Numbered from the stretch's first letter, positions 1,802 to 63,789 are shown. The stretch is DNA of 64,000 bases from Leucoraja ocellata (GCA_036785375.1 JAWMAR010000028.1:11098001-11162000), one strand, 5' to 3'. The notes: generated by a model from the letters alone, not told the origin. Made by a program: numbers and translations.

Positions 1802-1829
1802 GACGTTTCGGGTCGGGACCCTTCTTCAG
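1802..1829 (-). ncRNA. Candidate minimal hammerhead motif within a short repeat (~1735-1831)
   Basis: The minus strand reads CTGAAGA-A-GGGT-CCCG-ACCC-GAAACGTC. Confidence 0.55.
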
Positions 1830-2109
1830 ACAGCATATCAGAGGCCAGCAGCAAGTCAGAGTCAAAGATAGTGCAAAGATATCTTTGCACTTTGTACACC
1901 ATACCAGAACTAAATAACAGGCCGGGGTTTAGCAACAAGCCAGAGTTAAACACCTTTCCCGATTTAAAGATGCCATCGCTGTTAAAAAGCCAGTCAGAGG
2001 TAAAATCAGTGCCAGGGGCCAGACACTCTGCCCATGCATGCACATTGCCATAGGTCAGCATCAGACCGGAGGTACCCAGTCATCCTGAATTAGTCACCAT
2101 GCTGGTGCT

Positions 2110-2742
2110 AATTCAAGCTAATGTAATGTTGGCCTTCATAACAAGAGGATTTTCAATTAAGAGGTTCTTCTGCAGTTGTATAGGGCTCTGGTGAGACCAC
2201 ATCTAGAGTATTGTGTACTGTTTTGGTCTCCTAATTTGAGGAATGACATCCTTGTGATTGAGGCAGTGCAGCGTAGGTTCACGAGATTGATCCCTGGGAT
2301 GGCGGGAGTGTCATATGAGGAAAGATTGAAAAGACTAGGCGTTTAAAAGGATGAGGGGGATCTTATAGAAACATAAAATTATAAAAGGACTGGACAAGGT
2401 AGATGCAGGAAAAAATGTTCCCAATGTTGGGGAGTCCAGAACTAGGGGCCACAGTCTAAGAATAAAGGGGAGGTCATTTAAGACTGAGGTGAGAAAAAAC
2501 TTTTTCACCCAGAGTTGTGAATTTATGGAATTCCCTGCCACAGAGGGCAGTGGAGGCCAAGTCACTGGATGGATTTAAAAGAGAGTTAGATAGAGCTCTA
2601 GGAGCTAGTGGAGTCAAAGGATATGGTGAGAAGGCAGGCACGGGTTATTGATAGGGGATGATCAGCCATGATCACAATGAATGGCGGTGCTGGCTCGAAG
2701 GGCCGAATGGCCTCCTCCTGCACCTATTTTCTATGTTTCTAT
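2110..2742 (+). mobile_element. CR1-type LINE 3' fragment (frameshifted)
   Basis: Homologous to 845-1325 with additional upstream RT sequence; ends in ttttctatgtttctatg. Confidence 0.88.
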
Positions 2743-2940: not shown

Positions 2941-4239
2941 TTGATAGTAGTCACAATGCCAGTGTTATACAGTCTGCCACAGTTGGTCACAATGTCAGTG
3001 TTTAGTTTTGCTTAATCTGGTTTAGTTTAGTTTAGTGCCGCATTGCAGACCATACCAGTGACTGTTTAGTTTAGTGCCACCACCCTGTTAGATGCCATGC
3101 ATTAAGGACCATGTCTGTGTTTAGTTTACTTTAGCGCCACCACTCTTAGAGATCATGCGTTAAAGACCATGCCCGCCAAAAGCACCTTGCCAAAAGTTCA
3201 GCACTTGAACAGAGTTACACACGGCGGCTGTGTTAAATAAACAAGGTGGGGGGCAGGATTCCACAATGCACATCGTTTAATGATGTGCCTAAATTAAGAA
3301 GATAGTATATTTAAACCCTGGGTGGTTTACGCGCTGTGGCAGAGTTAAACGCCTGGAGATGTACACAGTGCCAGAGTCAGATATATACGCCAGTCCCATC
3401 CCCGTTAGCGGGAGGCCAGTGTTTGTTAACCAGCGCCAGGCTCCGGCAAAATGACAGAAGGATACATACAGCGACTAGTTACAAACAGCAACGCACGCGA
3501 GTTCTGCAGGAACCCCTTCTTCACACCTCTAACTTCTCACTCCCCTGACTCTCAGCCTGAAGAAATGTCTCGACCCGAAGCGTCACATCCCTTCCCCCTC
3601 CAGAGATGCTGCCTGTCCCGCTGAGTTACTCCAGCATCTTGTGTCTATCTGCAGGAACTGAGGTTGTCCACCGCGGTGTAAATACAACAGCAACACTCTG
3701 GAAATGGACACCACAATACCATACGGTTTATTTGTCACATTGCACATAAAGTGCAAGTGACATGAATAAACTCGAGAGACATGGGAGATATAGATCGCAC
3801 CGGATTTATAAATGCGCCGCGTCCGAATTACGCGCCTTAAATGGAACCAAAAATAGTTACGTCGAGTTATTCAATGCCACACAAGGACTGTGCGTCAAAT
3901 AAAATGGTTTTGTTTAATGATACAGCGTGGAAACAGGCCCTTCAGCCCACCGAGTCTGCGTTCACCCCTAGTTCACCTAACCAGCTTCTGGGAGCTTGAA
4001 GCAGAGTTGGCGCATGTACCAATGCCAATGCTCTCTTCACACACTCACAGTCTGAGCAAAGATCAATTCCCATATTTCCACTTAGCTATAAAAGATGGGA
4101 AATATTTGGATGGATTAAAGATGGATATTTCCTAATTGGAATAAACTGGAATAATTCCTCATTGGAATAAAAGTGATCAAATCTCTGAGAAACTTTCAAG
4201 TTTCTGAAGCAACGTTTTCAAATTTGAACTTTTTTAATG

Positions 4240-4527: not shown

Positions 4528-5080
4528 TCCAACCAGCGCCAGGATTGTTCACCAGGTTGGGTAATGTGCTAACGGAGTCGCCCATCTGTCGGGCTGGAGC
4601 AGGTAACGCTGTGGGCCAGATCTGCACTCAATATTTCAGCACCACTGCGGCCTGGGCGATGCACAAAGTACAGGAGCCGCTGGTGCCCGGCGCCACCCCA
4701 CCGCCTCGCCCCACAGCACAATATTTCCACGTGAGCCGCTCGGCCTCGAAGTCCTCAGAGCAGGATGTCCTCAGTGTATAAGGAACTGCAAGCGCTGCGT
4801 TATGCCGATCGATACATAGTACTGGAGTAACTCAGCGAGTCAGGCAGCATCGGGTGACATTTCGGGTCGAGATCCTTCTTCAGACACCTCTGAACACAGA
4901 TATCCTACAGATGTGCTCTGTGCCTGGAGCCAACTCCCAGACTAGTCCTCCCGCCAACTTCACACCCCGGCCTCCTTCCTGGTCCCCAAAGGCCAATTGG
5001 TAAGAGCAGAGACACTCGTCTTCCTGGTCTTTACTGAACCCGATCCCTGTCCCCACACCAACCGCAAACATTGATCAGCA

Positions 5081-5445: not shown

Positions 5446-5479
5446 GTTTGGACATAAGCATGGATGAAGTAGTATCCAG

Positions 5480-6020
5480 TCTGAGGAAAGGTCCCGGCCC
5501 TACTCGTTGTTTGTCTATTCCCTCCGCAGATGCTGCCTGGCCCGCTGAGTTCCTCCAGCACTTTGTGCTTTGCTCAAGATCCAAGCATCTGCAGTTCCCC
5601 GTGGCTCCATTTTACTGCTCCATTTGTATACCAGCTTTGAAGAAGTTCTCCTCTTCTCTCCAATGGCCAGACCCTCTCTCACTGCACCCACTCCGTGATT
5701 CCTGCTGCTGCTATTGGTCTGGAGAATGGAGGGTAGAGCCAAGGAACTGCAGATGCTGGTTTATACCAAAGAGAGACACAAAGTATTGGAATAACTCAGC
5801 GGGTCAGCGAGTCTCATCAGAAACGTGACCCATCCTTTTTCTCCGAGGATGCTGACTAATCCGCGGAGTTCCTCCAGCATTTTGTGTCTATCTGAAGAAG
5901 GAAAGGTCCTGTCCCGGCGCTTCATCTGTCCATTTCCCTCCACAGATGCTGCCTGACCCGATGGGTTTTTTTTCCCTTGCACTTCATGTTTTGCTCAAGA
6001 TCCCAGCGTCTGCAATTCGT
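5480..6020. mobile_element. Cluster of short Penelope-like repeat fragments in both orientations
   Basis: Repeated gatgctgcctg(g/a)cccgctgagtt.ctccagca and gaactgcagatgctgg motifs. Confidence 0.7.
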
Positions 6021-9000
6021 TGTGGCTCGTGTCCCGGATAGGTTCGATACAGTCCTTGGTTGGTCGACCAACGGCGGTGGGAGGGGTGGGAGACTAGTGA
6101 AAGGCTCATTGCTTAACTGGAGACTTCTCCCTCTCTGGTGACGGCCCGCATTCCGGTTGCAAGGAGGGGTGGGTGGGGGGGGGGGGGGGGGGGAGACGAG
6201 GAACTAGGCAACATGACTTCACAGTTTGGTGCGCTCTGTATAACACACGTTGCACAAGAAAGAGGCGATGCGTGGAAGTACGGATTCTGTGATCACAAAG
6301 CGCTGGCCGAACTCAGCGGGTCAGGCAGCATCTGTGTGGGGCGATGGACATACATGTTTTTGTCCGAGTGACTCCGCCTGTGCATAGTCTACCTCCTGTG
6401 ATGGGAGCACAGAGATCGGGAAAGGGGAGGGGATGGCAGAGATATTGAGAGACTGGATGTTAGCTGTAAATTTGACTAAATGAAGGGGTTCTGCGAGGGC
6501 GGTGTGGCAAAGAAATATCCCGGGAATGGTGCCAGGGTCTGTTTGGAAAAAGCTGCACAATAACACCAAGGAACTTGAAGGAGTCAAAGTCACTCGACTA
6601 ACAAATTAAATGCCATTTAATCCCTTTATTTACTTTTCGGGTGAAATTGGATTGGCTCGTGATTGCAACCTTTGAAATATCCCAACTAGATGTGTAACGC
6701 CAAGTGTAAGAGGAACTCAGCGGGTCGGGCAGCATCTGGGTTCCTGCAGCATTTTGCGTTTTCGTCAAGAATCCCGCATCTGCAGTTTCTTGTGTCTGGC
6801 CTTATGCAGAGATGCTTACAATTCTTAGTGGTATAATTTACACTGTCCACCCAACACTACGGGACCAATAACGTTGGGAGGCCTAGGCGGGTGGTGGCGT
6901 TTCCCACACGGGAGACACGGGCCTCGGATCTGCAGTGTTACACACCCCCTCCGCTCTGGGAGATGCTGGTGGGAGAGGGCTCGCAAATAAATATCCGTGA
7001 TGGGGTCGGGCGCAGCGCTCTCACTGTGTACGGGTGGGAATAACGCGCAACTTCCCGCTAAAGCGATGCTGAACTCCGGAGACCAGATTTTGTTGGCAGT
7101 TTGTAGCCGGCGCCATGACAACCCGTCTCTGCTCGTTTACCGCTGATCCGTTCTCAGTTGATTTATTTACTTTTCATGTAAGGGGGAACTCCATTAATCT
7201 ACTCTGGGAAGGCGAAGGGAAGCTTTGAGTGGCGCGGAGCTACGGTGTGTAAGCGGTATAACAACTCTTGCAGTGAAGCTGAAACACACACTTGTGGTGC
7301 TACATGGATGAACACCAAAAACTAAACAGCATTTAATCGTGCCTGGTGATAGGTGGGGTAGCATAAGTGTGTATACTTTAGATACTACTTTAGCATTGGG
7401 AATGGCTTTCTTGGTTGAGCGCTTATCCTTGTTTATAGCACAAGTAATTTGTGCTATAATAGTCATTCAAACTCTCATTTCTCCAGTATTTCCCGATTTA
7501 TATGGAGGAATATTATCCATAAAGTAAGGTTAATTTCAGGACTAACCCTTCTCATGTAACCAATGGCGGGGGAGATGTGCAATGTCAATGGGCGAGGGTG
7601 GTCGGGGTGTTACAATAGACAGCTGTAGTTTCCGTGTNNNNNNNNNNNNNNNNNNNNNNNNNNNNNNNNNNNNNNNNNNNNNNNNNNNNNNNNNNNNNNN
7701 NNNNNNNNNNNNNNNNNNNNNNNNNNNNNNNNNNNNNNNNNNNNNNNNNNNNNNNNNNNNNNNNNNNNNNNNNNNNNNNNNNNNNGTGCGTGTGTGCGAG
7801 CGTATGTGTGTAAATGCGTGTGTGTGCATGCGTACCTGTGTGTGTGTGTGTACGTGTGCCTGTGTGCGCGGGTGTATGTGCGTCTGTGCGTGCGTGTGTG
7901 AGAGAGAGGGCGAGAGAGAGCAAACCCATCTTTGCGGGAGAGTAACCCATCTTGCTCCGCTATAACATATTTGAGAGAGAGTGTGTGTGTGTATATGTGT
8001 GTGCGTGCGGGTGTTGTTTCGTTGTGACTTTGAGTTGATCAGGGAGATTATCAGGATCCAGGGTCCGACTGATTTGCAAAGCCTTCAACACGTCCGGCCC
8101 TTGTCATAGCTGCCTCCCATTATCCGGCAACAGTATAAAATATAACGTTTTCTGTTTAATAGACTACCGTCTCCTCTGTGATGAGCAACAGTCACTGTAA
8201 ACACTGTATGATTTCACATTTAAGAGTTCAGAACACAAAAAGTAGAGAAACTATTAGCTCTGTAAAGCGTCTAAAGGGAGGGAGGTGGTGATAGTTGTCT
8301 GTGACTGCGACAATTACACCGGACACGTCTTTGATTTCATTTTACCATTTATTTCTATTTCGGGATGACGATGTTATAGAAGATAATGTGTATTGTGGTC
8401 TGCCTTATTCCCCAAAGTTATTATTCTTGCATTCCACTGCTATAACATAAAACAGTGGAATCAGCCGTTTGATCTCCTGCCTGACACCATGAGAATCAAA
8501 TGTTCACACGCCGGAGACTCGGAAATGTTCTAAATGTGCACGTTAATAAAATGCGAGCATTAAATAATGTCCTTTCAGTTTTTACTGTTCAAAAGTGGCA
8601 ACACAGCGAAGCAGTGCTGTTTTAGACGAGATCCACGTATGGGCTGCATCTCCTGAAGACATCTTTTTGCAAAGAAGAATTCTTCATTATATCTGCACTA
8701 TTTTTCAGTCTGAGGACCGATTTTCCTTTTTTAAACACCCTGTTTTGAAATGATGGCGAACTCAATGCTCGCTCTCAAGATTTTCCTGTTTTTAAACCTG
8801 GTCCTTTTTTAGGTCTTAGAACCACAGGCCGATTCAACTTTGCTTTATATCAAAATGTACCAAATAGTTTAGTTTCCAACGAAGAGTGCCCCCGAATATC
8901 CAACTGTCACCGGTGTGAAGAACTATCCCAACAGGGACTGAATGTTTTTAATAAGAACAACTTTAAAAATGTCGTGCAGAACCCATAAAACAATAACAAT

Positions 9001-12859: not shown

Positions 12860-13123
12860 TTAGAAAAGGTTCGTTAAGGTAGTTTGTGAAGGACTCCCGG
12901 ATTCGTGCGCGTCCAGGTTAGTGGTCACTGACGATACTACTGACAGAGTGGGATTGGTCAAGTCTGTTAAAGTGGTCGAGGTGCTGCCCGGACTGAGTGC
13001 GGCGCCGGACCTCTCTGCTGGGGGCGGGGCGGGCAGTGCTGTCCCGTCAGCTTTATCACCACCCCCATTCTCTTGTCGCAAAAGGTTCCTTCTGAATTTG
13101 GCTCTTGCGTTTTGAAACCAAAC
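12860..13123 (-). CDS. lhx9: lhx9 copy 1 coding exon 5 (recognition helix and C-terminus)
   Basis: Acceptor tttgcag|GTT; VWFQNARAKFRRNLLRQENGG...SPSQTTLTNLF, stop TAA. Confidence 0.97.
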   Translation of the reverse strand, partial: VWFQNARAKFRRNLLRQENGGGDKADGTALPAPPPAERSGAALSPGSTSTTLTDLTNPTLSVVSSVTTNLDAHESGSPSQTTLTNLF

Positions 13124-31740: not shown

Positions 31741-32239
31741 ACAGGAAATTGTCCTCTGATACGAATATTTATTTGTCCGTCCTGACGTTGTTTGCAACAC
31801 AGAATACAATACAGGAGATACAAGGAACTGCAGATGCTGGATTGCAAAAAAAAAATACACAAAGTGCTGGAGTAACTCAGCGGGACAGGCGGCATCTCTG
31901 GAGAACATGGATAGGTGGCGTTTCATGTCGGGACTTTTTCCAGACTGATATGTTCCTTGGTCTGTTATACAATATGTTAGTTGATTTCTGGCAATAATGT
32001 CAGAAGATTTCCTTGAATTTTATGAAATGTTTTTTGAAACAGAGTCATTTGCGTAACGCGGTAACAACGAGTTCTTCATACATTTATTTCGACAATTATG
32101 GAGTCATTGCAAAATACTCTCGACTGAGCATCATGTAATGATCAACCCGGCGATGTTGTCTTCGAATAAGATCACGGATCGATGCCACCAGAGGTTTTCA
32201 TTTCTTTACATCGTGACCCGGACAACTGATAAGTTCTCC

Positions 32240-32925
32240 GAAGGCAGACACAAAATGCTGGAGTAACTCAACAGGACAGGCAGCATCTCTGGAGAGAAGG
32301 AATGGGTGACGGTTCTGGTCGAAACCCTTCTGAGAGTCGGGGGGCGGGGGGGCGGGGGTGGGGGGGGGAGACTAGAGATATGGAAGGGTAAGATGTGAAA
32401 TAGACAGATCAAATGAGATGTTCAAGAAGGAACTGCAGATGCTGGAAATCGAAGGTCGACAAAAGTGCTGGAGAAACTCAGCGGGTGCGGCAGCATCTAT
32501 GGAGCGAAGGAAATAGGCAACGTTTCGGGCCGAACCCCTTCTTCAGCGGAGATGCTGTAAAGGAAATGTTGAAAGGTCATTGTTAGGACGGAACTGGGTC
32601 TGATGGAATGGTCTCGACCCGAAATATCACCTATTCCTTCTCTCCGAGATGCTGTCTGATCCACTGAGTTACTCCAGCTTTTTGTGTCTATACATGGGTC
32701 AGTGTTGACTGAGGGGAAGTTCTCCGCTCGCTGGTTAAACTCGTGAACTAACCAGCATCCAAGGGCCGTGTGGCACGTGGTTCCATCCTTTAGCCTTCAC
32801 TGTCGTGCAGAGTGAAGAAAACTTCCAGCAAGTGATCAATTCCAATGCCTGACCCGCTGACTTACTCCAATATCTTCTGTCTACCTTCGGTTTAAACCAG
32901 CATCTGCAGTTCCTTCCTACACAAT
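32240..32925. mobile_element. Dense cluster of Penelope-like fragments in both orientations (copy 2 at ~62875-63560)
   Basis: At least four gctggag(t/a)aactca / tgagttactccagc units; a hammerhead-like motif lies at 32519-32546 (-). Confidence 0.72.
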
Positions 32926-33965
32926 TCAAATGGGTCTCCAGGGGTGTTTCAAAGTGGCATCGCACTTAGATGGGAGTTTAATTTATTTTTGGGCCTTGTC
33001 ATTAAACTGTCATTGATAAGAACCGATGAGTTGTGGATTACAGTAAAGCGGGCAGCGACCCGGCGAACAACAATCCAAGTGTAACTACACGTTCCCTGGA
33101 AGCTGAGTTTTGAGCAACTTTCTACCCCCCCCCCAGCTAAAGCCGCACGACATCTTCCTGTTTCAAGAGTGCTTTCTGCATCTGCAACAAAAAACATCTT
33201 CAAAGTTAAAAACTTTTGGAATGACATAAATAAATTGGTGATTATATCCATTAAATAATGACAGCGATAGCTGGGTAGCACGCGTCCATTGCAATGTCAT
33301 TACTCGGTCACGTTCATTGATTGATTGACACCGCGGCCCTTTCCACAATGTAGCGCCCCAGTTCCAGAGACAAAGTCCAATGTTGGCAACTGGGTAGATG
33401 TGAATCGGACAGTACCCTAGCTTAGGGAAGGACCGTGGGGAAGCACGATAACAGCAAGAATTTCGTTGTTAAATTTCGCTGTATTAAACATTTAACACTT
33501 GTATAGGAAGGAACTGCAGGTGCTGGTCTAAACCGAAAATGGACACAAAGTGCTGGAGTAACTCAGCGGGTCAAGCAGCATCTCTGGATAGCATGGAGAG
33601 GTGACGTTTCAGGTCGGGACCCCTCTTCAGACTGGGACATTAACACGTTTGACTGGCTTGCCTCTTGATGCATTTTCTAAATTCCATCGTCTCCTGGTGA
33701 AGGGTTGTGGATACAACGTTGAGACGTGGATAACGCCCTGGGTCTGAATCCCGGCGTCTCAATGTGGTCTTTGATGTGGTCTCTCTGAGAACATGGCTCA
33801 TGTGAATGCTTCTGAACCCAACAACCACCACTTATTCTCACCTAGTCCACGATATTTCTATCCACTCCCCCCCACCCCCCAACCATATTCATCGCACCTC
33901 AGAAACACCCCTTGCCAGAATATAGTTATGGAGTCACACAGAGTAAAAGCAGACTTAAAAATAAA

Positions 33966-34165: not shown

Positions 34166-37100
34166 CATATTTCCACTTAGCTATAAAAGATGGGAAATAT
34201 TTGGATGGATTAAAGATGGATATTTCCTAATTGGAATAAACTGGAATAATTCCTCATTGGAATAAAAGTGATCAAATCTCTGAGAGACTTTAAAGTTTCT
34301 GAAGCAACGTTTTCAAATTTGAACTTTTTTAATGTTTAGAGTTTGGAGATATAGCATGGAAACAGGCCATTCCGCCCACCGAGATCATACTGACCCTCTA
34401 TCACCCGTTCAAACCAGTTATCCCAATTTCTCATCCACTCCCCACACACTGGGGCAATTCATAGAGGGTAAATTAACCAACAAACCCGCACGTCTTTATG
34501 ATGTGGGAGAAAACCGGAGTACCCGGGAGAAACCCACACGGTCACAGGGAGAAGGTGCAAACTCCACAAGGACAGCACCCGAGGTCAGGGTGGAACCCGG
34601 GTCTCTGGTGCTGTGAGGCAGCTTCCAACCAGCGCCCGGATTGTTCACCAGGTTGGGTAATGTGCTAACGGAGTCGCCCATCTGGCGGGCTGGAGCAGGT
34701 AACGCTGTGGGCCAGATCTGCACTCAATATTTCAGCACCACTGCGGCCTGGGCGATGCACAAAGTACAGGAGCCGCTGGTGCCCGGCGCCACCCCACCGC
34801 CTCGCCCCACAGCCCAATGTTTCCACGTGAGCCGCTCGGCCTCGAAGTAGAAGCAGGATGTCCTCAGTGTATAAGGAACTGCAAGCGCTGCGTTATGCCG
34901 ATCGATACATAGTACTGGAGTAACTCAGCGAGTCAGGCAGCATCGGGCGACGTTTCGGGTCGAGATCCTTCTTCAGACACCTCTGAACACAGATATCCTA
35001 CAGATGTGCTCTGTGCCTGGAGCCAACTCCCAGACTAGTCCTCCCGCCAACTTCACACCCCCGGCCTCCTTCCTGGTCCCCAAAGGCCAATTGGTAAGAG
35101 CAGAGACACTCGTCTTCCTGGTCTTTACTGAACCCGATCCCTGTCCCCACACCAACCGCAAACATTGATTAGCATAGAAACATAGCTAGATAGAAAATAG
35201 GTGCAGTAGGCCATTCAGCCGTTCGAGCCAGCACCGCCATTCAATGTGATCATGGCTGATCATCCACAATCAGTGCCACGCTCCTGCTTTCTCCCCATAT
35301 CCCTTGATTCCGTTAGCCCGAAGAGCTAAACTTAACTCTCTTAAAAACATCCAGTGAATGGGCCTCCACTGCCTTCAGTGGCAGAGAATTCCACAGATTC
35401 ACAACTCTCTGGGTAAAATCGTTTTGCCTCATCTCAGCCCTAAATGGCCTGCCACTTATTCTTGAGCTGTGACCTCTGGTTCTGGACTCCCCCAACATCG
35501 GGAACATTTTTCTGCATCTAGCCTGTCCAATCCCTTAAGTTTGGACATAAGCATGGATGAAGTAGTATCCTAGAGTCTTATCCAGTCTGAGGAAAGGTCC
35601 CGGCCCTACTCGTTGTTTGTCTATTCCCTCCGCAGATGCTGCCTGACCCGCTGAGTTCCCCCAGCACTTTGTGCTTTGCTCAAGATCCAAGCATCTGCAG
35701 TTCCCCGTGGCTCCATTTTACTGCTCCATTTGTATACCAGCTTTGAAGAAGTTCTCCTCTTCTCTCCAGTGGCCAGACCCTCTCTCACTGCACCCACTCC
35801 GTGATTCCTGCTGCTGCTACTGGTCTGGAGAAGGGGAGGGTAGAGCCAAGGAACTGCAGATGCTGGTTTATACCAGAGAGAGACACAAAGTATTGGAATA
35901 ACTCAGCGGGTCAGCGAGTCTCATCAGAAACGTGACCCATCCTTTTTCTCCGAGGATGCTGACTAATCCGCGGAGTTCCTCCAGCATTTTGTGTCTATCT
36001 GAAGAAGGAAAGGTCCTGTCCCGACGCTTCATCTGTCCATTTCCCTCCACAGATGCTGCCTGACCCGATGTTTTTTTTCCCTTGCACTTCATGTTTTGCT
36101 CAAGATCCCAGCGTCTGCAATTCGTTGTGGCTCGTGTCCCGGATAGGTTCGATACAGTCCTTGGTTGGTCGACCAACGGCGGTGGGAGGGGTGGGAGACT
36201 AGTGAAAGGCTCATTGCTTAACTCTGGAGACCTCTCCCTCTCTGGTGACGGCCCGGATTCCGGTTGCAAGGAGGGGGGGGGGGGGGGGGGGGGAGACGAG
36301 GAATTAGGCAACATGACTTCACAGTTTGGTGCGCTCTGTATAACACACGTTGCACAAGAAAGAGGCGATGCGTGGAAGTACGGATTCTGTGATCACAAAG
36401 CGCTGGCCGAACTCAGCGGGTCAGGCAGCATCTGTGTGGGGCGATGGACATACATGTTTTTGTCCGAGTGACTCCGCCTGTGCATAGTCTACCTCCTGTG
36501 ATGGGAGCAGAGAGATCGGGAAAGGAGAGGGGATGGCAGAGATATTGAGAGACTGGATGTTAGCTGTAAATTTGACTAAATGAAGGGGTTCTGCGAGGGC
36601 GGTGTGGCAGAGAAATATCCCGGGAATGGTGCCAGGGTCTGTTTGGAAAAAGCTGCACAATAACACCAAGGAACTTGAAGGAGTCAAAGTCACTCGACTA
36701 ATAAATTAAATGCCATTTAATCCCTTTATTTACTTTTCGGGTGAAATTGGATTGGCTCGTGATTGCAACCTTTGAAATATCCCAACTAGATGTGTAACGC
36801 CAAGTGTAAGAGGAACTCAGCGGGTCGGGCAGCATTTGGGTTTCTGTAGCATGTTGCGTTTTCGTCAAGAATCCCGCATCTGCAGTTTCTTGTGTCTGGC
36901 CTTATGCAGAGATGCTTACAATTCTTAGTGGTATAATCTACACTGTCCACCCAACACTACGGGACCAATAACGTTGGGAGGCCTAGGCGGGGTGGTAGCG
37001 TTGCCCACACGCCCCCCCCCCCCCCCCCCCTGCCCGGTGGTGACATGGCAGAATGACTGTCCGTACAACTTGCTCCTGTGCTACTGCCCCAAGCACACGG

Positions 37101-38218
37101 GCAATACTCTCTTGGTTATCCCTGCATGTCCTGTCACTTCGACACGGTTGAGTTTCTCCTACATCTTCCCGGTTCAGCCGTGAATAACGGGAGAACGTTC
37201 AGACTGCAGACACCGGGAACTGCAGATGCCGGTTTACCAAAAAAAAAAAGATACACGTGCTGGAGTGACTCAGTGGGTCAGATAGCATCTCTGGAGAACA
37301 TGGGTAGGGGATATTTCACAAAGTACTGGAGTAACTCAGCGGGTCAGGCAGCATCTCTGGAGAACATGGACAGGATCAATTCCCATCGCAGATCCACTGC
37401 GTGTACAAGGCGTCGAGGTGGAGTCTACCTGGCCCAAGAGCCGAGAGGAATTGCTCTGATAGGGTCACACAGGAGCTCTCACGCCCGTACATGGGAGACA
37501 CGGGCCTCGGATCTGCAGTGTTACACACCCCCTCCGCTCTGGGAGATGCTGGTGGGAGAGGGCTCGCAAATAAATATCCGTGATGGGGTCGGGCGCAGCG
37601 CTCTCACCGTGTACGGGTGGGAATAACGCGCAACTTCCCGCTAAAGCGATGCTGAACTCCGGAGACCAGATTTTGTTGGCAGTTTGTAGCCGGCGCCATG
37701 ACAACCCGTCTCTGCTCGTTTACCGCTGATTCGTTCTCAGTTGATTTATTTATTTTTCTTGTAAGGGGGAACTCCATTAATCTACTCTGGGAAGGCGAAG
37801 GGACGCTTTGAGTGGCGCGGAGCTACGGTGCGTAAGCGGTATAACAACTCTTGCAGTGAAGCTGAAACACACACTTGTGGTGCTACATGGATGAACACCA
37901 AAAACAAAACAGCATTTAATCGTGCCTGGTGATAGGTGGGGTAGCATAAGTGTGTATACTTTAGATACTACTTTAGCATTGGGAATGGCTTTCTTGGTTG
38001 AGCGCTTATCCTTGTTTATAGCACAAGTAATTTGTGTTTTAATAGTCATTCAAACTCTCATTTCTCCAGTATTTCCCGATTTATATGGAGGAATATTATC
38101 CATAAAGTAAGGTTAATTCCAGGACTAACCCTTCTCATGTAACCAATGGCGGGGGAGATGTGCAATGTCAATGGGCGAGGGTGGTCGGGGTGTTACAATA
38201 GACAGCTGTAGTTTCCGT

Positions 38219-38515
38219 GTGTGGGTATGTAACTGTAAAAGAGAGAGAGTGTGTGTGTGTATGTATGTGTCTGGGTATATATGTGCGTGTGTATATGTGC
38301 GTGTGTGTGTCTATGTCTGTGTGTGTGTGTGTGTGTGTGTGTTAGTGTGTGCGCATGTACGCGGGTGTCTGTGTGTGTGTGCGTATGTGTGTATGTGTGT
38401 ATATGCGTGTGTGTGCATGCGTACCTGTGTGTGTGTGTGTGTGTACGTGTGCCTGTGTGCGCGGGTGTATGTGCGTCTGTGCGTGCGTGTGTGAGAGAGA
38501 GGGCGAGAGAAAGCA
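38219..38515. repeat. Degenerate (GT)n/(GA)n microsatellite (partly N in copy 1, 7638-7920)
   Basis: Directly visible gtgtgt/gcgt/gtat tract. Confidence 0.95.
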
Positions 38516-41500
38516 AACCCATCTTTGCGGGAGAGTAACCCATCTTGCTCCGCTATAAGATATTTGAGAGAGAGTGTGTGTGTGTATATGTGTGTGCGTG
38601 CGGGTGTTGTTTCGTTGTGACTTTGAGTTGATCAGGGAGATTATCAGGATCCAGGGTCCGACTGATTTGCAAAGCCTTCAACACGTCCGGCCCTTGTCAT
38701 AGCTGCCTCCCATTATCCGGCAACAGTATAAAAGATAACGTTTTCTGTTTAATAGACTACCGTCTCCTCTGTGATGAGCAACAGTCACTGTAAACACTGT
38801 ATGATTTCACATTTAAGAGTTCAGAACACAAAAAGTAGAGAAACTATTAGCTCTGTAAAGCGTCTAAAGGGAGGGGGGTGGTGATAGTTGTCTGTGACTG
38901 CGACAATTACACCGGACACGTCTTTGATTTCATTTTACCATTTACTTCTATTTCGGGATGACGATGTTATAGAAGATAATGTGTATTGTGGTCTGCCGTA
39001 TTCCCCAAAGTTATTATTCTTGCATTCCACTACTATAACATAAAACAGTGGAATCAGCCGTTTGATCTCCTGCCTGACACCATGAGAATCAAATGTTCAC
39101 ACGCCGGAGACTCGGAAATGTTCTAAATGTGCACGTTAATAAAATGCGAGCATTAAATAATGTCCTTTCAGTTTTTACTGTTCAAAAGTGGCAACACAGC
39201 GAAGCAGTGCTGTTTTAGACGAGATCCACGTATGGGCTGCATCTCCTGAAGACATCTTTTTGCAAAGAAGAATTCTTCATTATATCTGCACTATTTTTCA
39301 GTCTGAGGACCGATTTTCCTTTTTTAAACACCCTGTTTTGAAATGATGGCGAACTCAATGCTCGCTCTCAAGATTTTCCTGTTTTTAAACCTGGTCCTTT
39401 TTTAGGTCTTAGAACCACAGGCCGATTCAACTTTGCTTTATATCAAAATGTACCAAATAGTTTAGTTTCCAACGAAGAGTGCCCCCGAATATCCAACTGT
39501 CACCGGTGTGAAGAACTATCCCAACAGGGACTGAATGTTTTTAATAAGAACAACTTTAAAAATGTCGTGCAGAACCCATAAAACAATAACAATTCGTCCC
39601 CAGTTTCATACCACTAAGTATTTGTTGTTTGTGTTGCGCGAGGTTTGCAAAGGTTATAACTTGAACAATCTCCAATGTGTTTACATGTCGCATCAACTAC
39701 GGGATACGTTGACATATTCTGTTGTGCTGCTGCAAGTAAGAATGACATTGTTCTCTCTGGGATATGTCACAATAAACACACTCTTGAGTCTTGACACTCC
39801 ATAATGACGTTTGATATGGACACATTGTATCCCACAATATAGTTTCGTTTGGGATTTTTTCATCAACTAATTTGGCCATTTGGTTGCAACATGGTCGTGG
39901 TGAATGTTTAGTGAGCTGTCATCGCTATACTGTACTAATGAACGTGAAATGCGCCGTTTGATGTGCGTGGCTTTGCAATAAAGAAATACTGGCAAATGTT
40001 CCCCAACATTTAAAGGAACACAGCCCCTCGTGTTCCCTTTGCTATTTTTTTTATTTCCGATCGTCTCTACCGTAAGAATTAAAAAAAAAACTGCTTCTTA
40101 AGATAACTGTCTTATTAAAAGCAGAAACAGGCGTGAGTCATAATATACCGCATGGTGACACTGTCAACTGAGACCGTTGGTAATGGTTGCGTGGTGGGAA
40201 AACTCCCAGAAACATCTGCATTAGGACATCACCCCAACAACACAACCATTAGCGTCGGTGTCCTCATGTCTAGTTTTAATATAGGAATGAATATAGAAAA
40301 AAACCCATATATGTATATATATATATGTATCTTACAATATATAGAGTTTTTATACTACTTTGGCATTGGGCTTGGGTTTCTTGGTTGANNNNNNNNNNNN
40401 NNNNNNNNNNNNNNNNNNNNNNNNNNNNNNNNNNNNNNNNNNNNNNNNNNNNNNNNNNNNNNNNNNNNNNNNNNNNNNNNNNNNNNNNNNNNNNNNNNNN
40501 NNNNNNNNNNNNNNNNNNNNNNNNNNNNNNNNNNNNNNNNNNNNNNNNNNNNNNNNNNNTGTGTATGTGTGTGCATAATTCAGTTATATATTGGAATCTT
40601 GATACATATATGAACCTATGTATTCATGGGTTCATATATGGTTCATACATATATATGTGTATACATATATATATATATATATATACGTATCCATGGTATA
40701 TATACGGTCTTGAAGAGGGTGGGGGAGTGTGCGTTGATCCAACAAATGAATCAGTTGAATATAGATGAAGCTAACAATGTATTAGCGGCGTAAGTGCTTT
40801 GAGTCAGGGTGTTGCATAACAAGGACACGTTGCCTCAGAGAGGGAGTCATGTGTTGCATTAAGCAGTCGAGTGTGTTCGATACTGAAATCTGTTTATTAC
40901 AATTAACATCAACCAATGAAAATGTATACATCACCCAAGAACAGTACTGACAATATTACATCCGACCCTTTGATAATTAAAAGAATTTAGAGAAAGTATT
41001 ATAATGGCATGCACAATGTGTCTCAGTTTTGATTTTCAACCAGCAATACCAAAGTGTCGCCTGTGGGCTGGAAGGGCTTGCGAATTTAGACTCAAAATAC
41101 CTTAACATTGATAATCCCTGTTATAAGAATGTCGCTCATAGTCATCATAACCAAATCTCCACATTACAAATGGATATCAAATTGATTACACATTTAGAAT
41201 CGTATAATACAGAAAAAGCGCTGCGTTTGATCTCCGAAAAATGGTTAATTTATCGTTCAGCTTGTCTGTGCAATGACCTGTCCTAACCGCATCCTAATTC
41301 TTTCCAATTCCAGCGCACACTTTATCTTCTCTCTACATGTATGTCCACTGATAGCTTAAAAGTAAAAAATATACAACACGTTGCGTCCTACATTAGCTTA
41401 AACATTCAAGCAAATGACATTTTGGAGTCTTATTATAGTTATGTATCTGAGTAAATTTTTAGGATATTTAATTGTGTGTTAATATAGTCTTTGTCTTCAC

Positions 41501-41541
41501 TGATGTTGAATTCCGATCAACCTTCCCCCTTCTTAAAATAC

Positions 41542-41598
41542 CTAGGGAATTTTCAAACGTCGGGAGGTGTGGCTGTAATGCCCCAAGATTTGTTCTCC
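41542..41598 (-). CDS. lhx9: lhx9 copy 2 alternative last exon (Lhx9-alpha)
   Basis: GEQILGHYSHTSRRLKIP* with an AG acceptor, as at 10980-11036. Confidence 0.87.
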   Translation of the reverse strand, partial: GEQILGHYSHTSRRLKIP

Positions 41599-43423
41599 CT
41601 GAAAGAAATCATAGTAACAGTTTATTAAACTACAGAGCAACCTGTCCTTACGGGGTCTTTTTGTTATGTTTTTTAACAAGGATAATATTTCCACCATTTC
41701 GTGAAAAACTATTTTGAAAAGGTAAATCTGCATTATTTGGACTTTTGGCATTATTTTTCCCTGAATCTGTAAAGTTCCAACTGATTTAGTCCCCCCTCCC
41801 CTTTAAAACAAAACTTGTGGGCCCCTAACCCACCGGAGCAGGTTTTTTAAATTCGAAGTCATTTTGGGTCTCTCTCAATCTACGCTAACAACCTGAACTT
41901 ATGTGCACGCTTGCTTCCTGATTATCTACAGCCGTGTTTCATTTACTGCGTCAAAGCACAGTTGCTTGTTTCACCTGTGTATGTCCCTGAAACATCTGTC
42001 ATTTATTTCTAAATTAAGTGGCCATTCTAGAGTCGAAAATAGACAATTGAAAAAATAGAGATCGTGGAAAAGTAATGTTGGTACAAACATACAATCTATA
42101 ACCTTTGAAATAAACTCGATGTGTGGTGTATTCATTTCAGGCACTTTTTATAACATTAGTGCTTTTCTGCTTGAGCTGATAAAATGTTTAGTTCCTGATT
42201 TATTCATTTTAAATGGTGTTATGTCTCTACATTCGCCTGTTTGTATTATTACCGACATTTTCTGGTTTTCAAACGAGTTTCACGCGTAAGGTCACTCGCC
42301 CGTACACAATTCACATAGACGTAGTTCGAGGAACTTATTTGACATTATAATATAAACGCCGCATGAAATAAGGCTGAACTGAAAACGATCAAACAAACTG
42401 GTTTAATCACACACTTTTAATAAGATATCACAAACGTTTGGTCCATAAATATTTAAGGGGACAACGCGCCTGTACAGTGTATTCATGTTAAAAACAAAGT
42501 AACATCAACAATCTCATCAAAACCACTTACTGTACTAATCATAAACACGAAAATCAACAGAAGGACCTCGAACGTACTTTGCAGTACTTAACATCGGGAA
42601 TACCAACTATCCTAGTGAGACAGTGTTCATATTTGCCTTGAAGGACAAATGCAAATGCCGTTTCTTTTCTTTTCAAAAAACAGTTTCCCCCCCCCCCCCC
42701 CAAAAAAAAGTTTTCAGAAAAAGAGGTAACAATACAAAACTTGTGAGGTGTCAGAAGGGATTTATTTTCTCTCTTTCTCTCCAAACAAGGGAAACACGTC
42801 ACAAATTTTCTTCAGTAATATCGTAAGGCACGTGATAAAGCTGCGATGGACCTCACTCGCTAAAATAGATCCTGTATCATGTTCCGTTCTTCCAAAGAAC
42901 GCGTGGTTTTGTTTGAATAATCTTGGCCAGATTTATTGTATTAATGTCGGTACCGAACACATGACAATAAACGCGGAATAGAGGCTGGATAGGCGGTAAC
43001 TGGTGAGTGCGCATGAAATTGTCTCTGTTTAAAAAAACCCTCTCCCTAAAACACAAGCCTGCAATGCAGAGGCCTCGTTAACAAAAGGTGGGCACTTTCA
43101 GCAGAGGTGAAGAAAACAGGAGTATGTTTGTATGACCAGTGTAGTGGAAAGTGAAAGTCTGAAGGAAGATATAGTTGGAAATGGGATTATATTCCAAGCG
43201 CAGTCACCACTGCACAATCCATTGACATTGATTTCTATTTGTGTAAACTGTTTTGTTCTCTACTGTTGTAAACTAGAATTCGTCAATAAACAAAAAATAT
43301 ATATATTCATATCAGTTATTTAACAAAATCATCCTACACAACAAACAGGATTTGTTTTTTTTAACTTCCCAGGGATTTTTTTCTCTCTCTCTCTCTCTGT
43401 TGTAAAGGAATCTGCTAAAAATG

Positions 43424-43687
43424 TTAGAAAAGGTTCGTTAAGGTAGTTTGTGAAGGACTCCCGGATTCGTGCGCGTCCAGGTTAGTGGTCACTGACGATA
43501 CTACTGACAGAGTGGGATTGGTCAAGTCTGTTAAAGTGGTCGAGGTGCTGCCCGGACTGAGTGCGGCGCCGGACCTCTCTGCTGGGGGCGGGGCGGGCAG
43601 TGCTGTCCCGTCAGCTTTATCACCACCCCCATTCTCTTGTCGCAAAAGGTTCCTTCTGAATTTGGCTCTTGCGTTTTGAAACCAAAC
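43424..43687 (-). CDS. lhx9: lhx9 copy 2 coding exon 5
   Basis: Same translation as 12860-13123. Confidence 0.96.
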   Translation of the reverse strand, partial: VWFQNARAKFRRNLLRQENGGGDKADGTALPAPPPAERSGAALSPGSTSTTLTDLTNPTLSVVSSVTTNLDAHESGSPSQTTLTNLF

Positions 43688-46600
43688 CTGCAAACCAATC
43701 CCATGTAATCTTTTTACCGATCTTTTGATGCTTTCATCTAATCACAAACCACAAATCATTGCTATAGATAGATATAGATAGATATATAGATAGATAAATT
43801 ATTTAAACAGCTAAAACTATTCATTAAATAGATCAGCATTAAATGGTCTGGGGATGCCATTGTGATATTAAAAAAACACTTAATACCATTGACTGGCCTA
43901 CACAATGCTAGTTCATAACAATGGCACACATATAAAACTATTTTACCTAACGAGTTAGGAACTATAATTCTTAAAACTTAAAATGAGTTTATTCAAGCCC
44001 TATGTTGCATCCACCAGTATTCTAGCGTGGGAGGAAGTGGTGAAGGCTCTCGGCTGAGTTATTTACCCCGATAACCCCCCCCCCCCCCCCTCCCCCTCCC
44101 CCTCCCCCTCCCCTCCCTCCCTCCACCCCTCCCTACCGCCTCTCTCAACTCCATGGCCCAAGAAAGTACTCCACGGCGCGGCTGTCACACGGGAGTTTAT
44201 TTACCAACCATCCCAATCTCAACGACTACCCCCCATTTAGCCAAATGCAGCAAGTTGTAGAGATCCTACCGACTATCTACGATCAGTTAACTTTGAGAAA
44301 TTAATTAAGAATGAGAGGCGTGAGCCGGTTGGAAATGCAATTTGTTCTAATGGTTAGCAAGATGGGCGAATTGTCATTTTGGGTAAGGTCTAAAATCCTT
44401 GGATTAACTCTCAGTTCTGGGTTGTGTATTCAGCGCCTAAGTCTGCAAGTGTTCATCCTATCTTGGTGTTTAAGAAGGAATTGCAGATGCTGGAAAATCG
44501 AAGGCACACAAAAATGCTGGAGAAACTCAGCGGGTGCAGCAGCATCTATGGAGCGATGTGCTGCTGCGCCCGCTGAGTTTCTCCAGCATTTTTGTGTACA
44601 TCCTACCTTGGTGTTCAGTTCACCATCCCTCAGTGCAACAAGACCGATCAAACCGGGACTTACGACACACTAATGTTATTAATGGGACATATATTTGAGA
44701 GCAGATGAAACATAGATGCTCTCTATACCACCCCCCTCCTTAAGCATTTGGGTTCTTGTTTTAATGTGTCTGGCACTCCCGGACGTAACTCTGTTAATGT
44801 GTCAGTACTTTGCAATTTAAAAAAGTTATCTTCTTGGTGATTACAGAACATTAAGGAAGGGAGCGGGGAAACTAGGGTTAAAATCTCCTTTGTAAATAGG
44901 AACGCGTCTTACCTGCAAAACTCTTTTGGTGAGCCCAGTTTTCTGAGCGAGTTGCTTTAAGTCTTTCGCGTCTGGGTTGTGGTTTATGGCGAAGTAGGAC
45001 TTCATGGTGCGGAGCTGGTGGTGCTTGAAGGAGGTGCGCATTCGCTTGGTTTTCTGGGTCGGCGGGTAGGACTGTTGTTCCCTGTCCAAGTGGTCAGCGT
45101 CGTTCTCATTGCAGCCTAGGACGCAGAAACAGAAGCGCGCTGTGTGTTAATTGCCGCTCCCACTGAGCTCCCGCTCGCCGCTCTATCAGTTGCTGCCTGC
45201 ACTAGGTGGCGCTAACTCCCCATCCTTGTCTGAAGAAGGGTTTCGGCCCGAAACGTTGCCTATTTCCTTCGCTCCATAGATGCTGCTGCACCCGCTGAGT
45301 TTCTCCAGCTTTTCTGTGTAACCTCCCCATCCTTCACCACTGGGTTCCATATCATGAGATAGTTGTAATCCATATAAATTATGGTAGAGTTTGTGTTTGC
45401 CACATAATGCCTGGGATATTGGTTAAACCCCCCTTTCTACTCTTCCTAAGGCTCCCAGATCAACCAAGCTCTCAGGAATTTTGATATTTTGGCAATCTCT
45501 CCTCAAAATATTACATTACTAATAACATGCAAAGATGGCCTTGTGCTTTGTGCGGAGTGACATGTTTTCGTACTAAACCCATGGGAGGAATCAATTTCGT
45601 TAAGTACGTTTGCTGCATTTCATTTAACTGTGTGCGATCACCGCCGGTTAAGGTTCTAATGGCGGAAACGCAATCTGATCACTACATTAAATAATTGTTG
45701 ATCGCTATTTGGTATTACGTGCAGCTACACTTTTTAATTCAGTGGCCTTACTAGCAAATGCAAGATGATGCCATATTTGGAAAACTCGTTTGCTTCCCAT
45801 AATGTTAATGCATTCAATGAAAGAACTTTCTTAAAATTACACATCAAACTACACATTAATTTTTTTTTAAAGTGGATACCACACTTCCAAAAAATAGCGT
45901 ATCACGTTTTAATAAATGGTTTGAGTTATTGCAAGCTTAGTGAGATTTAATGACATTTGCGGTCACATATAATTTAACAGTGACATTAACTGTTCGTCTC
46001 ACTCTGCATCAGAGTAATTTCAAAGCAAGTCTAATCTTCCGATTCTAGCTCGATCTCTTGTAAAAGGCACAGATAACTGGCGCAGCTAAGGGAGCTTTCT
46101 AGCTACAGAGGCACCGGGCGCAGTTTCATTAAAAAAAACTTAAGCAACCAACTTCCCGGTTTGAGTTTTTAAAAAGTGTGGCCTTATATCTAAACCAAGT
46201 CAGATACTACGAGCAACGAGTGGATCGAGTGCTCCCTGACTTCTACGATTAATTTATGTTTCATTAAACGGCTTTCCTGAGTTTCATTTTAGCCCATTTT
46301 AATTTTAATTGGACATGCATGGTAAATGGTTGGAATTTGCAATTACATACGCAAAGGTTAGCATTAACAATCTAATGCTATATTTGCAAATCCATTATGA
46401 AAGTATTAAGAATCTCCAACAAAGTCACTATTAAAAAAATACTGCCTATTTATAAAATGTCTAACTTCCCACAAAGAAATTATGTTTTTACATTGTTTAT
46501 TTGTCCATTCTGTGCAAAACCAACCGTCTATCTACACAAAGTACTGAAATACCAGCTATGCAAAGTGGTTTTACACGGTATGAACAAAAACGCTTTTCTT

Positions 46601-63758: not shown

Positions 63759-63789
<31 letters not shown>

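Follow-up and report, generated by a model that had tools for sequence, protein, structure and literature searches.

Hammerhead-bearing short repeats around Lhx9 in Leucoraja ocellata resemble truncated ends of Penelope-like retroelements

The Lhx9 region and its commonest repeat

The window analysed, 64,000 nucleotides of Leucoraja ocellata DNA (GCA_036785375.1 JAWMAR010000028.1:11098001-11162000), contains the coding exons of Lhx9 and a twin of them (Table 1). An Lhx9 exon matches shark at 92%, every other match listed being at 82% or below, in line with the cartilaginous-fish host proposed in a sequence-only reading of this DNA. Bases 4071-33345 differ from 34166-64000 at 277 of 28,659 aligned bases; the second half of the window probably represents either a recent tandem duplication or the second haplotype. 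Since the Lhx9 region is present twice in tandem at 1% divergence, the repeat fragments were counted as 30 independent ones, and the duplicated counterparts, which had earlier been added as further copies, do not count as independent. The 30 fragments amount to ~8% of the unique DNA, at a density of one per 1.2 kb. The hammerhead-bearing family was rightly called the commonest repeat: in bases 1-33965 it is the largest repeat component, with 24 loci versus eight and five for the next two families.

The family overall is old, the median copy lying 15% from the consensus, but there has been recent activity in at least one subfamily: the 95-bp copy at 45228..45322 has a matching empty site and is therefore a recent insertion. 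Recent mobility, which had been suggested for the family as a whole, is seen in this one of 21 units only.

Table 1. Positions of Lhx9, the duplication and the repeat copies in the window; +1 is C3 of the CUGAAGA box
Feature	Position	Strand	Details
Lhx9, five coding exons	12863..19430	-	19254-19430, 18346-18549, 16944-17306, 14337-14543, 12863-13129
Lhx9 twin	43427-50115		
Second copy of 4071-33345, 1.0% divergent	34166..64000	+	joined at N gap 33966-34165
Copy, -1 to ~+86	1745..1831	-	core 1802-1829 complete: 4-bp stem II, ACGU palindrome, 2-bp helix I
Copy with tail, internal deletion	4775..4885	-	core 4856-4883: stem II mismatch, CpG-decayed palindrome
Copy with tail, 5' end -2	20440..20556	-	core 20526-20553, CpG-decayed palindrome; 9-bp target duplication 20431-20439 / 20557-20565
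Copy without tail	29243..29341	+	core 29243-29270: weakened stem II, CpG-decayed palindrome
Second fragment, 54 bp upstream of the preceding copy	29128-29188		
Subfamily B copy with tail	32418..32546	-	core 32519-32546, stem II 3 bp only
Main-subfamily copy	32594-32691	+	head-to-head with 32418..32546 across a 47-bp spacer
Copy with tail, 5' end ~-5	33498..33636	-	core 33603-33630 complete by descriptor, one stem II G-U; imperfect ~10-bp target duplication
Subfamily B insertion, 95 bp, -1 to +93, without tail	45228..45322	+	complete core 45230-45257; exact 12-bp target duplication 45216-45227 / 45323-45334; Lhx9 intron 3, antisense to the gene, ~110 bp from exon 4 acceptor
Empty site for the 45228-45322 insertion	14643..14654	+	single copy of the 12-bp target
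Head-to-head pair	291..510		short arm 291-390 (-), long arm 387-510 (+); 12-bp target duplication, one mismatch, 285-296 / 513-524
Head-to-head subfamily B pair without hammerhead	13894..14030		arms start at +39 (long) and +50 (short); target duplication, microhomology included, 13877-13898 / 14022-14043; Lhx9 intron 4, found in both halves
Head-to-head pair, then tandem copy	5740..6021		5740-5807 (-) long, 5813-5895 (+) short, 5892-6021 (+) tandem
Head-to-head pair without hammerhead	6697..6791		one short and one long arm; junction overlap 3 nt
Head-to-head pair	30998..31190		minus arm from 0; plus arm from +21, with tail
Minus-arm core of the 30998..31190 pair	31057-31084		G8 changed to C
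Copy reaching 43 bp upstream of core, without tail	3514..3647	+	exact 11-bp target duplication 3503-3513 / 3648-3658
Partial tandem	22658..23015	-	degraded 5' copy 22953-23015; tailed copy 22658-22776 without GAAA box; between them 176 bp of upstream sequence ending in pyrimidine tract and CAG
Copy reaching 82 bp upstream of core, homologous there to the upstream sequence of 22776	32237..32417	-	part of core deleted; lies immediately downstream of the 32546 copy

A minimal hammerhead motif and its conservation

The 28-nt motif described in the sequence-only reading is present at all seven sites and on the strands given there, and its degenerate form, with up to three mismatches, has 13 matches in the window versus none in 100 dinucleotide shuffles. 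Rfam hammerhead models need a full stem III. No hammerhead family is among the 23 Rfam matches with E up to 5. A minimal type I descriptor (CUGAnGA, optional extra base, stem II of at least 4 bp, GAAA, paired N-N', UH) gave seven matches at five independent loci and none in 200 shuffles.

As proposed, the motif fits the minimal type I hammerhead of Penelope-like elements (PLEs) feature by feature. The CUGAnGA and GAAA boxes and the NUH triplet are correctly spaced, the family consensus has the extra base between 9 and 10.1, the G10.1-C11.1 pair and the palindromic 15.2-16.2, and all 11 core bases and their spacing match the consensus of the PLE hammerheads found in pseudo-LTRs of metazoan Xena, Poseidon and Neptune (Cervera and de la Pena 2014, PMC4209133). 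The likeness extends to GAAA-CG-UH without loop III, the short helix I, the pyrimidine-rich 5' flank, the location in terminal-repeat-type sequence as in PLEs (EN+), and copies that are mostly single, dispersed and truncated, with some opposite-strand pairs. By contrast, the 4-bp stem II and 2-bp helix I stand at the short end of the published range, and no RT frame is linked to the family in the window; a 2-bp helix I also occurs in D. virilis Penelope (PMC4209133). The same study reported ~4,000 (coelacanth) and ~9,000 (Xenopus) whole-genome descriptor hits, counted differently from the fragments here, and its Table S1 and Figure S3 include no cartilaginous fish.

The complete motif, with a Watson-Crick palindrome and 2-bp helix I, is kept in only three independent copies. 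The loop variants noted earlier were confirmed by alignment within the window, and of the seven copies in which the stem was said to be largely kept, two, at 4856 (A-C mismatch) and 32519 (G-G mismatch), fall short of a 4-bp stem II. The C/T position after GAAA differs between the twin copies 4856 and 34949, so its variation looks like CpG decay rather than covariation. Covariation of the stem was not found: two-sided change affects none of the eight pairs of helices I and II in 11 copies, a small, neutrally decaying sample with low power, the only pair changes being U-A to U-G and decay, and none of the 14 pairs of the downstream stem, in which +47..54 pairs with +109..117. As to the excess conservation expected of the boxes, changes affect 10 of 145 core cells (6.9%) versus 63 of 244 in loop and spacer (26%), although the manner of choosing copies favours first-box conservation and the GAAA..U half (8/70) does no better than the element body (63/589, 10.7%; tail 8.8%). 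The four subfamily B changes in +1..+30 all lie outside the 11 core bases and leave the pairing intact.

In a folding model that ignores the tertiary core, the hammerhead-constrained fold lies 2.6-10.2 kcal/mol above the best fold, and the double hammerhead reaches -4 to -5 versus -21 to -25 kcal/mol for the free cofold. Folding thus predicts structures that compete with the hammerhead, and the earlier suggestion that monomers are probably inactive agrees with this prediction. No intact tandem dimer, meaning two neighbouring complete cores, occurs in the window.

Copy ends, target duplications and inverted pairs

The 3' ends of the 30 copies form two classes ~38 nt apart, with 13 at +86..+99, 16 at +119..+133 and one elsewhere; target duplications pin down four ends in each class. 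Eleven 5' ends and seven 3' ends were set by hand, and without trimming three 3' ends lie at +104, +107 and +117. The ~38-nt difference is the optional PLE 'tail' of 30-40 bp (PMC8557442), also given as 31 bp (PMC3846280) and 34-37 bp (PMC2377424); the tail length corresponds to the spacing of two RT start sites (PMC11167929).

Five of the 21 insertion units are directly flanked by target duplications, of 9, 11, 12, 12 and 22 bp, the last overlapping the element ends, and inspection by eye added a sixth that is ~10 bp long and contains an indel; as a control, 8 of 145 random site pairs match the target-duplication score when abutment is not required. The inverted arrangement noted earlier is real: within 70 bp there are six head-to-head and no tail-to-tail neighbours among the 21 units. 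In every head-to-head pair a short arm is joined to a long one (permutation p 0.018, or 0.035 when five pairs are counted), a clear target duplication accompanies only two of the six, and the 32418-32691 pair joins two subfamilies. Inverted PLE pairs with a tail on one arm and target duplications of 8-10 bp have been described (PMC3846280), and the head-to-head pseudo-LTRs, solo pseudo-LTRs and empty-site proof of insertion likewise recall D. virilis Penelope and the Adineta vaga Pen families (PMC2377424, PMC3846280), although the inverted units here are only 95-220 bp and lack coding sequence. Partial tandems, 5' truncation and variable target duplications all occur, as in PLEs (EN+).

Two origins outside the PLEs were weighed against these features. 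LINEs and SINEs, too, show 5' truncation and target duplications of variable length, and the repeats might be a SINE or LINE 3' end unrelated to PLEs, its hammerhead-like string coincidental or long dead; the Rfam result, the lack of covariation and the cost of the hammerhead fold all point that way. We regard this origin as quite unlikely, as the core bases and spacing, extra base after A9, G10.1-C11.1 pair and palindrome are those of the PLE consensus, the copies have no poly(A) or microsatellite tail, no BLAST link (E 1e-4) joins them to the window's other repeat families, ARAGORN reports 0 tRNAs, and the two classes of 3' end, with a single tail in each inverted pair, are characteristic of PLEs. 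Tyrosine-recombinase elements (DIRS/Ngaro) or LTR elements might carry hammerheads, and short, dispersed, terminal-repeat-like units could be their split repeats or solo terminal repeats. That origin is very improbable: DIRS elements lack target duplications (PMC8969392), whereas here these are variable (9-12+ bp) and accompany ragged 5' ends and inversions.

The 5' ends cluster. Fourteen of 30 lie at the hammerhead's 5' edge (-6..+1), as many as in none of 20,000 uniform simulations (13 of 30 in -7..+1 before hand trimming), and plain random 5' truncation fails to explain 14 starts in an 8-nt window. The edge at -5..-1 is also the start of three of the four single copies bounded by target duplications, the empty-site one included. 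The earlier reading had looked to the cut site for 5' ends; just one of the 30 genomic copies starts near it (+27..+32). Since the ends lie at the hammerhead's 5' edge and not at the cut site, the templates were uncleaved. Only three copies reach beyond this edge, and their upstream sequence is common to all three, which are independent (0 of 300 shuffles as good), so that the unit is part of something longer. In these copies it has a 3'-splice-site-like end (pyrimidine tract and CAG) one base before the core. This resembles the intron of D. virilis Penelope, which ends at helix I (PMC4209133); the splice site here is predicted from sequence, and no donor was found for the putative pseudo-LTR intron.

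The shared edge makes a PLE-dependent SINE of 95 or 133 bp conceivable, with its own transcript starting at the edge and PLE protein acting in trans, or else run-off cDNAs primed in the 5' pseudo-LTR and ending at the RNA's 5' end; longer copies would then be the autonomous partner's ends. The clustered starts, those of the target-duplication-bounded copies and the scarcity of upstream extension favour it, as do reports that PLE pseudo-LTRs alone can be mobilised in trans (PMC3846280) and that the Anolis RT has an internal start close to the beginning of the ORF, a short way past the hammerhead (PMC11167929). The shared upstream sequence, however, is continuous with the core, truncation is common, 11 of 30 copies beginning no earlier than +21, a fixed edge would be mimicked by subfamilies whose upstream sequences differ, and there is no tRNA-derived head. 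We hold this possibility only tentatively; it is a refinement of the PLE-end interpretation and not fully exclusive of it.

A retrozyme-like system had been offered beside truncated Penelope termini. Animal non-LTR retrozymes, like the present family, are non-coding, PLE-related, carry type I hammerheads and occur in a chondrichthyan (PMC7229834; bioRxiv 10.64898/2026.07.22.740005); their tandem repeats would self-cleave as dimers, circularise and reinsert, the copies here being dispersed monomers. Tandem repeats with hammerheads, on average 363 bp long, have been reported from one chondrichthyan, and reported monomer fractions run from 0 to 1 (bioRxiv 10.64898/2026.07.22.740005). Partial tandems do occur at 22658-23015 (core-to-core 235 bp), 32237-32546, 5813-6021 and 37216-37374. 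Yet retrozymes form head-to-tail arrays with a complete hammerhead per unit, while Tandem Repeats Finder detects no array of the unit in the window and no neighbouring units have two intact cores; the units of described retrozymes measure 220-350 nt and their type I hammerheads are canonical (PMC7229834), unlike those of a family without loop III and with a 2-bp helix I. The near-absence of starts at the cut site also tells against retrozymes, and tails, inversion and target duplications favour Penelope termini, leaving a retrozyme origin unlikely.

Probable affiliation and a proposed mode of copying

The family looks like a known kind of element, Penelope-type ends with minimal hammerheads, and we consider it likely that the repeats are 5'-truncated 3' ends (pseudo-LTR pieces) of EN+ Penelope-like retroelements, of at least three subfamilies, in a cartilaginous-fish genome. 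PLEs are reported from the five vertebrate classes sampled outside birds and mammals, and the one chondrichthyan sampled has hammerhead tandem repeats (bioRxiv 10.64898/2026.07.22.740005). The linked RT plus GIY-YIG ORF that had been sought was not found among 365 stop-free frames of at least 45 aa in the window's non-duplicated DNA, which has a further 379 frames of 30-44 aa, as expected for copies shorter than 360 bp. Protein searches with repeat-derived peptides also gave no match.

A close mechanistic parallel is PAc, the Poseidon of Anolis carolinensis (Frangieh et al. 2024, PMC11167929), in which uncleaved RNA is the dominant insertion substrate and the hammerhead cuts only with protein. 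As proposed here, PAc has two internal RT start sites ~100 nt past the hammerhead, which define an optional tail, inserts from uncleaved RNA, and cuts and extends both target strands. In contrast, the PAc ORF starts at stem II, whereas the present family has its first ATG at +50, where a stop closes the frame in the main subfamily. AT-rich targets and an AC-rich stem-loop are preferred by PAc, whereas in the window the target duplications show no AT richness and a U-rich stretch precedes the short end.

A possible mode of copying is suggested by the copy ends. A source element elsewhere would be transcribed, its pseudo-LTR running from pyrimidine tract and CAG through the minimal hammerhead (+1 to +30) to the downstream stem-loop. 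PLE protein would nick target DNA and prime reverse transcription internally near +92 or +131, the two sites yielding the two 3' end classes if the enzymology resembles that of the Anolis element. Priming from both nicked strands, or template switching at short microhomologies, may produce the head-to-head pairs, with their tail on one arm inside one target duplication. Synthesis mostly halts at or just past the hammerhead's 5' edge, and the template RNA was uncleaved, since the copies run through the cut site. In source elements the hammerhead probably acts as a slow, protein-assisted or dimer-dependent ribozyme, and it is probably inert in nearly all inserted copies, which would decay neutrally.

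A hammerhead-bearing repeat family

The seven 28-nt hammerhead cores claimed by the sequence-only reading were each recovered in place, and the degenerate 28-nt pattern, with up to three mismatches, identified 13 sites in the window versus none in 100 shuffles. A descriptor of the minimal type I hammerhead matched seven sites, representing five independent loci, versus none in 200 dinucleotide shuffles. The 4-bp stem II proposed for these cores is present in five of the seven and is lost in 4856 and 32519 (cores are named by their first base); only in 1802, 33603, and 45230 does a 2-bp helix I accompany an ACGU palindrome with Watson-Crick pairing. The family consensus shows all the features of minimal hammerheads of Penelope-like elements (PLEs) described by Cervera and de la Pena, whose examples from D. 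virilis, Culex, and Oikopleura include helices I of 2 bp (PMC4209133). An Rfam scan of the window at E values up to 5 returned no hammerhead family; the highest-ranking matches came from (AT)n tracts and from the hairpins that an inverted pair forms. A perfect 22-bp palindrome is located 40 bp upstream of the 1802 copy. PLE ends with minimal hammerheads have been published for fishes, the coelacanth, Xenopus, and reptiles (PMC4209133), and hammerhead repeats are reported in one chondrichthyan (bioRxiv 10.64898/2026.07.22.740005); since the motif is known at PLE ends from many animals, its presence here is in itself expected.

A family profile built from 20 copies and run on the window and on the reversed window identified 52 fragments in the former and none in the latter. 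Thirty fragments, in 21 insertion units, are independent, and all family counts use independent copies only, such that twin copies in the two near-identical halves of the window are not counted twice. Within bases 1-33965, 27 fragments occupy 2,720 of 33,442 known bases (8%), and the family outnumbers every other repeat component of that region (24 loci versus 8 and 5). The two further repeat families, with five and eight loci, have no BLAST link (E 1e-4) to the hammerhead-bearing family; they have no Pfam match and presumably resemble CR1-type LINE 3' ends. Divergence between the copies and the majority consensus has a range of 7-27% and a median of 15%, subfamily differences counted in. Subfamily B (45230, 13984, 13986, and 32546, the last named by the end of the 32519 core) and the degraded subfamily D each have their own diagnostic changes. 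The subfamily D copies have common changes at G10.1 and A14 that are predicted to break the hammerhead, which bears on whether a ribozyme-dead source was mobile, the evidence being two degraded copies only.

The linked reverse transcriptase (RT) and GIY-YIG frame suggested as a check on the sequence-only reading did not emerge: Pfam identified none in 365 frames of at least 45 residues (120 of at least 70 residues, N-containing frames excluded, and 245 of 45-69 residues; 379 frames of 30-44 residues lay outside the scan). The curated cut-off was reached only by the LIM and homeodomain exons of Lhx9. In subfamilies B and D the frame that begins with an ATG at +50 runs without a stop through the tail and stays in register with the main subfamily, where a stop breaks it; this ATG could be the start of a PLE frame. 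In two weak tests, a 51-residue repeat-derived query against longer proteins gave seven candidates, none significant, and a 30-residue query gave no match among 1.84 billion representative proteins. Bacterial and archaeal genome contigs were scanned twice for carried-along host DNA, with no match either time. Membership of the PLEs is proposed on non-coding hallmarks.

Positions of features in the window
Feature	Position	Strand
First half of the twin stretches	4071-33345	
Second half of the twin stretches	34166-64000	
Subfamily B copy of the recent insertion	45228-45322	
Empty site (12-bp target, once)	14643-14654	
Second-half-only 482-bp segment	37011-37492	
Subfamily D copy	5481-5599	
Subfamily D copy	5892-6021	
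Frame from ATG at +50	13884-13973	-
Frame from ATG at +50	5485-5637	+
Palindrome	1870-1891	
Two other repeat families	858-1500	
Two other repeat families	2294-2746	
Two other repeat families	5076-5446	
Two other repeat families	20259-20440	
Two other repeat families	21608-21767	
Two other repeat families	22129-22337	
Two other repeat families	29990-30209	
Two other repeat families	30572-30954	

Ends, target duplications, and inverted pairs

With C3 of the CUGAAGA box numbered +1, the preceding base 0, and the predicted cut after +28, the 3' ends of the copies (n = 30; seven hand-set where the local alignment entered the flank, and three of them at +104, +107, and +117 without such trimming) form two classes, 13 at +86 to +99 and 16 at +119 to +133, with one elsewhere. 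Target duplications independently fix four 3' ends in each class, approximately 38 nt apart. No copy of the family has a poly(A) or simple-repeat tail. Of the 30 5' ends (11 of the 30 hand-set on the same grounds), 14 are within -6 to +1, matched in none of 20,000 uniform simulations; among the others, three are at +21 and one at +30. The copies 5813, 31090, and 37317 begin at +21 (alignment edges, two of them hand-set); stem II has its 3' foot there, which would be the point where an RT runs into the hairpin. In three copies a common upstream sequence continues for 43, 82, and up to 176 bp; it is a pyrimidine tract that ends in CAG one base before the start of the core.

Target duplications of 9, 11, 12, 12, and 22 bp adjoin 5 of the 21 units (8 of 145 random control pairs score equally, abutment not being required of them); a sixth contains an indel, and several overlap the element 3' end by 2-6 nt. 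Neighbors are head-to-head in six units and tail-to-tail in none. Every head-to-head pair consists of one short arm without tail (3' end near +92) and one long arm with tail (near +131) (p 0.018; 0.035 minus a mixed-subfamily pair), and only two such pairs have a clear target duplication.

This anatomy matches that of PLE insertions in the optional tail, the inverted truncated copy, the head-to-head pair, and the target duplication. PLE insertions are described as having an optional tail of 30-40 bp and, at their 5' end, a truncated copy in inverted orientation (PMC8557442), and as pairs of head-to-head pseudo-LTRs, one with the tail, inside an 8-10 bp duplication (PMC3846280); 5' truncation and pseudo-LTRs are also described (PMC8969392), and one account of the pseudo-LTR gives it a 34-37 bp repeat, a promoter, and an intron (PMC2377424). 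Three other origins fit less well. Retrozymes form arrays of complete units (bioRxiv 10.64898/2026.07.22.740005; PMC7229834), which are absent from the window. A SINE or LINE tail is opposed by the lack of a tRNA, of a tail, and of a link to other repeats of the window, and a DIRS or LTR repeat is contradicted by the variable target duplications (PMC8969392).

From the match to PLE insertions and from findings on an Anolis PLE, we infer target-primed reverse transcription that would start from about +92 or +131, with inverted pairs made by two-strand priming or a template switch. For the Anolis PLE, the tail is reported to be as long as the interval that separates two internal RT start sites, and cutting and extension to occur on both target strands; its main substrate is uncleaved RNA, the hammerhead cutting only with protein (PMC11167929). 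The window copies continue through the cut site, and so their templates would have been uncleaved; a religated circle may instead have been the template, but would not account for the 5' edge. An 8-bp helix pairing +47 to +54 with +109 to +117 of the tail is conserved in eight copies (two-sided changes, none) and may position the RT start sites. The stop at -6 to +1 may reflect run-off from priming in the 5' pseudo-LTR, the start of transcription, or splicing at the CAG; the intron of D. virilis Penelope ends at helix I (PMC4209133).

Competence of the predicted ribozyme

All four changes in +1 to +30 of subfamily B are tolerated (one in the loop, one at H17, and two that turn U-A pairs into U-G), and the absence of change in its 11 core bases is alone non-significant given approximately 15% change elsewhere. 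The proportion of changed cells is 10 of 145 in the core, 63 of 244 in the loop and spacer (p 2e-6 versus the core), and 106 of 759 in +31 to +86 (p 0.02 versus the core), with conservation of the first core box (CUGAAGA) inflated by the ascertainment of copies and the GAAA..U half (8 of 70) similar to the element body. The stem covariation by which the sequence-only reading was to be judged did not appear, none of eight hammerhead pairs showing a two-sided change. The C/T position after GAAA behaves like CpG decay, because twin copies differ there; the change removes the predicted ACGU duplex (-3.1 to +1.2 kcal/mol).

Stem II is sequestered in most of the predicted folds, and RNAalifold favors a rival pairing of its 5' strand with +29 to +32. 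In models that leave tertiary contacts out of account, adopting the hammerhead fold takes 2.6-10.2 kcal/mol, and the free cofold is much more stable than a double hammerhead. A helix I of greater length did not appear in constrained folds, and whole-element folds are not stabler than shuffles in three of four copies (z 0.59, -0.49, and -0.20; the fourth, -2.05). No same-strand neighbors with two intact cores occur in the window. On the best reading, the source elements would carry a genuine ribozyme of weak or protein-assisted activity, which is probably inert in nearly all window copies.

A recent insertion in Lhx9 and its implications

The two halves of the window are the same sequence twice, with 277 differences over 28,659 aligned bases and an N gap at the join; as a tandem duplicate of 30.6 kb, 1.0% divergent, it gives the window two Lhx9 genes. 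Lhx9 is on the minus strand with five coding exons per half, and the four exon stretches compared are identical between halves. Identity in the last exon reaches 92% with a shark Lhx9 and does not exceed 82% with any other of the 120 matches listed, which supports a cartilaginous-fish host. Most simply, the duplicate is probably both haplotypes assembled in tandem; a young genuine duplication is less simple.

A 107-bp insertion present only in the second half consists of the 95-bp subfamily B copy 45230 and an exact 12-bp target duplication, the target occurring once at the empty site in the first half. The copy is antisense in Lhx9 intron 3, approximately 110 bp from the exon 4 acceptor; Lhx9 introns contain no intact hammerhead on the sense strand. 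With the halves 1% apart, the insertion would be heterozygous or younger than the duplication, and precise excision from the first half is a less likely explanation. Recent insertion is seen in 1 of the 21 units, and the subfamily relatives differ from this copy by 7-12%. The 482-bp segment present only in the second half comprises two tandem family fragments and unique DNA; it was rejected as a second recent insertion, the fragments being old and the segment having no target duplication, and its absence from the first half looks like the result of a microhomology deletion.

The open literature on hammerheads with Penelope, shark, or Callorhinchus yielded no published account of this family (the 'shark' in the relevant part of hammerhead review PMC6155905 is the shape of the fold), which may already have a name, e.g. 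in Repbase, Dfam, or the chondrichthyan families of bioRxiv 10.64898/2026.07.22.740005. The window contributes scale (approximately 8% of unique DNA), a likely polymorphic insertion, and ends that fall in a clean pattern. What the PLE hammerhead does has been called unclear (PMC8557442), and cleavage was found unnecessary for insertion in vitro (PMC11167929); the window copies are in line with the latter finding, to which they add a sharp 5' boundary located at helix I. The likely polymorphic insertion in the Lhx9 intron suggests a living source element. We regard as possible, though rather doubtful, an active PLE-mobilized mini-element of 95-133 bp that makes up a few per cent of the genome and whose 5' edge at helix I is set by a transcription start or splice junction and not by cleavage. 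Were this so, its copies would document, naturally and on a very large scale, how a PLE protein primes at two sites and on two strands, and would allow an in vivo test of the hammerhead as a folded landmark, i.e. a protein-binding or RT-stop signal, versus a cutter.
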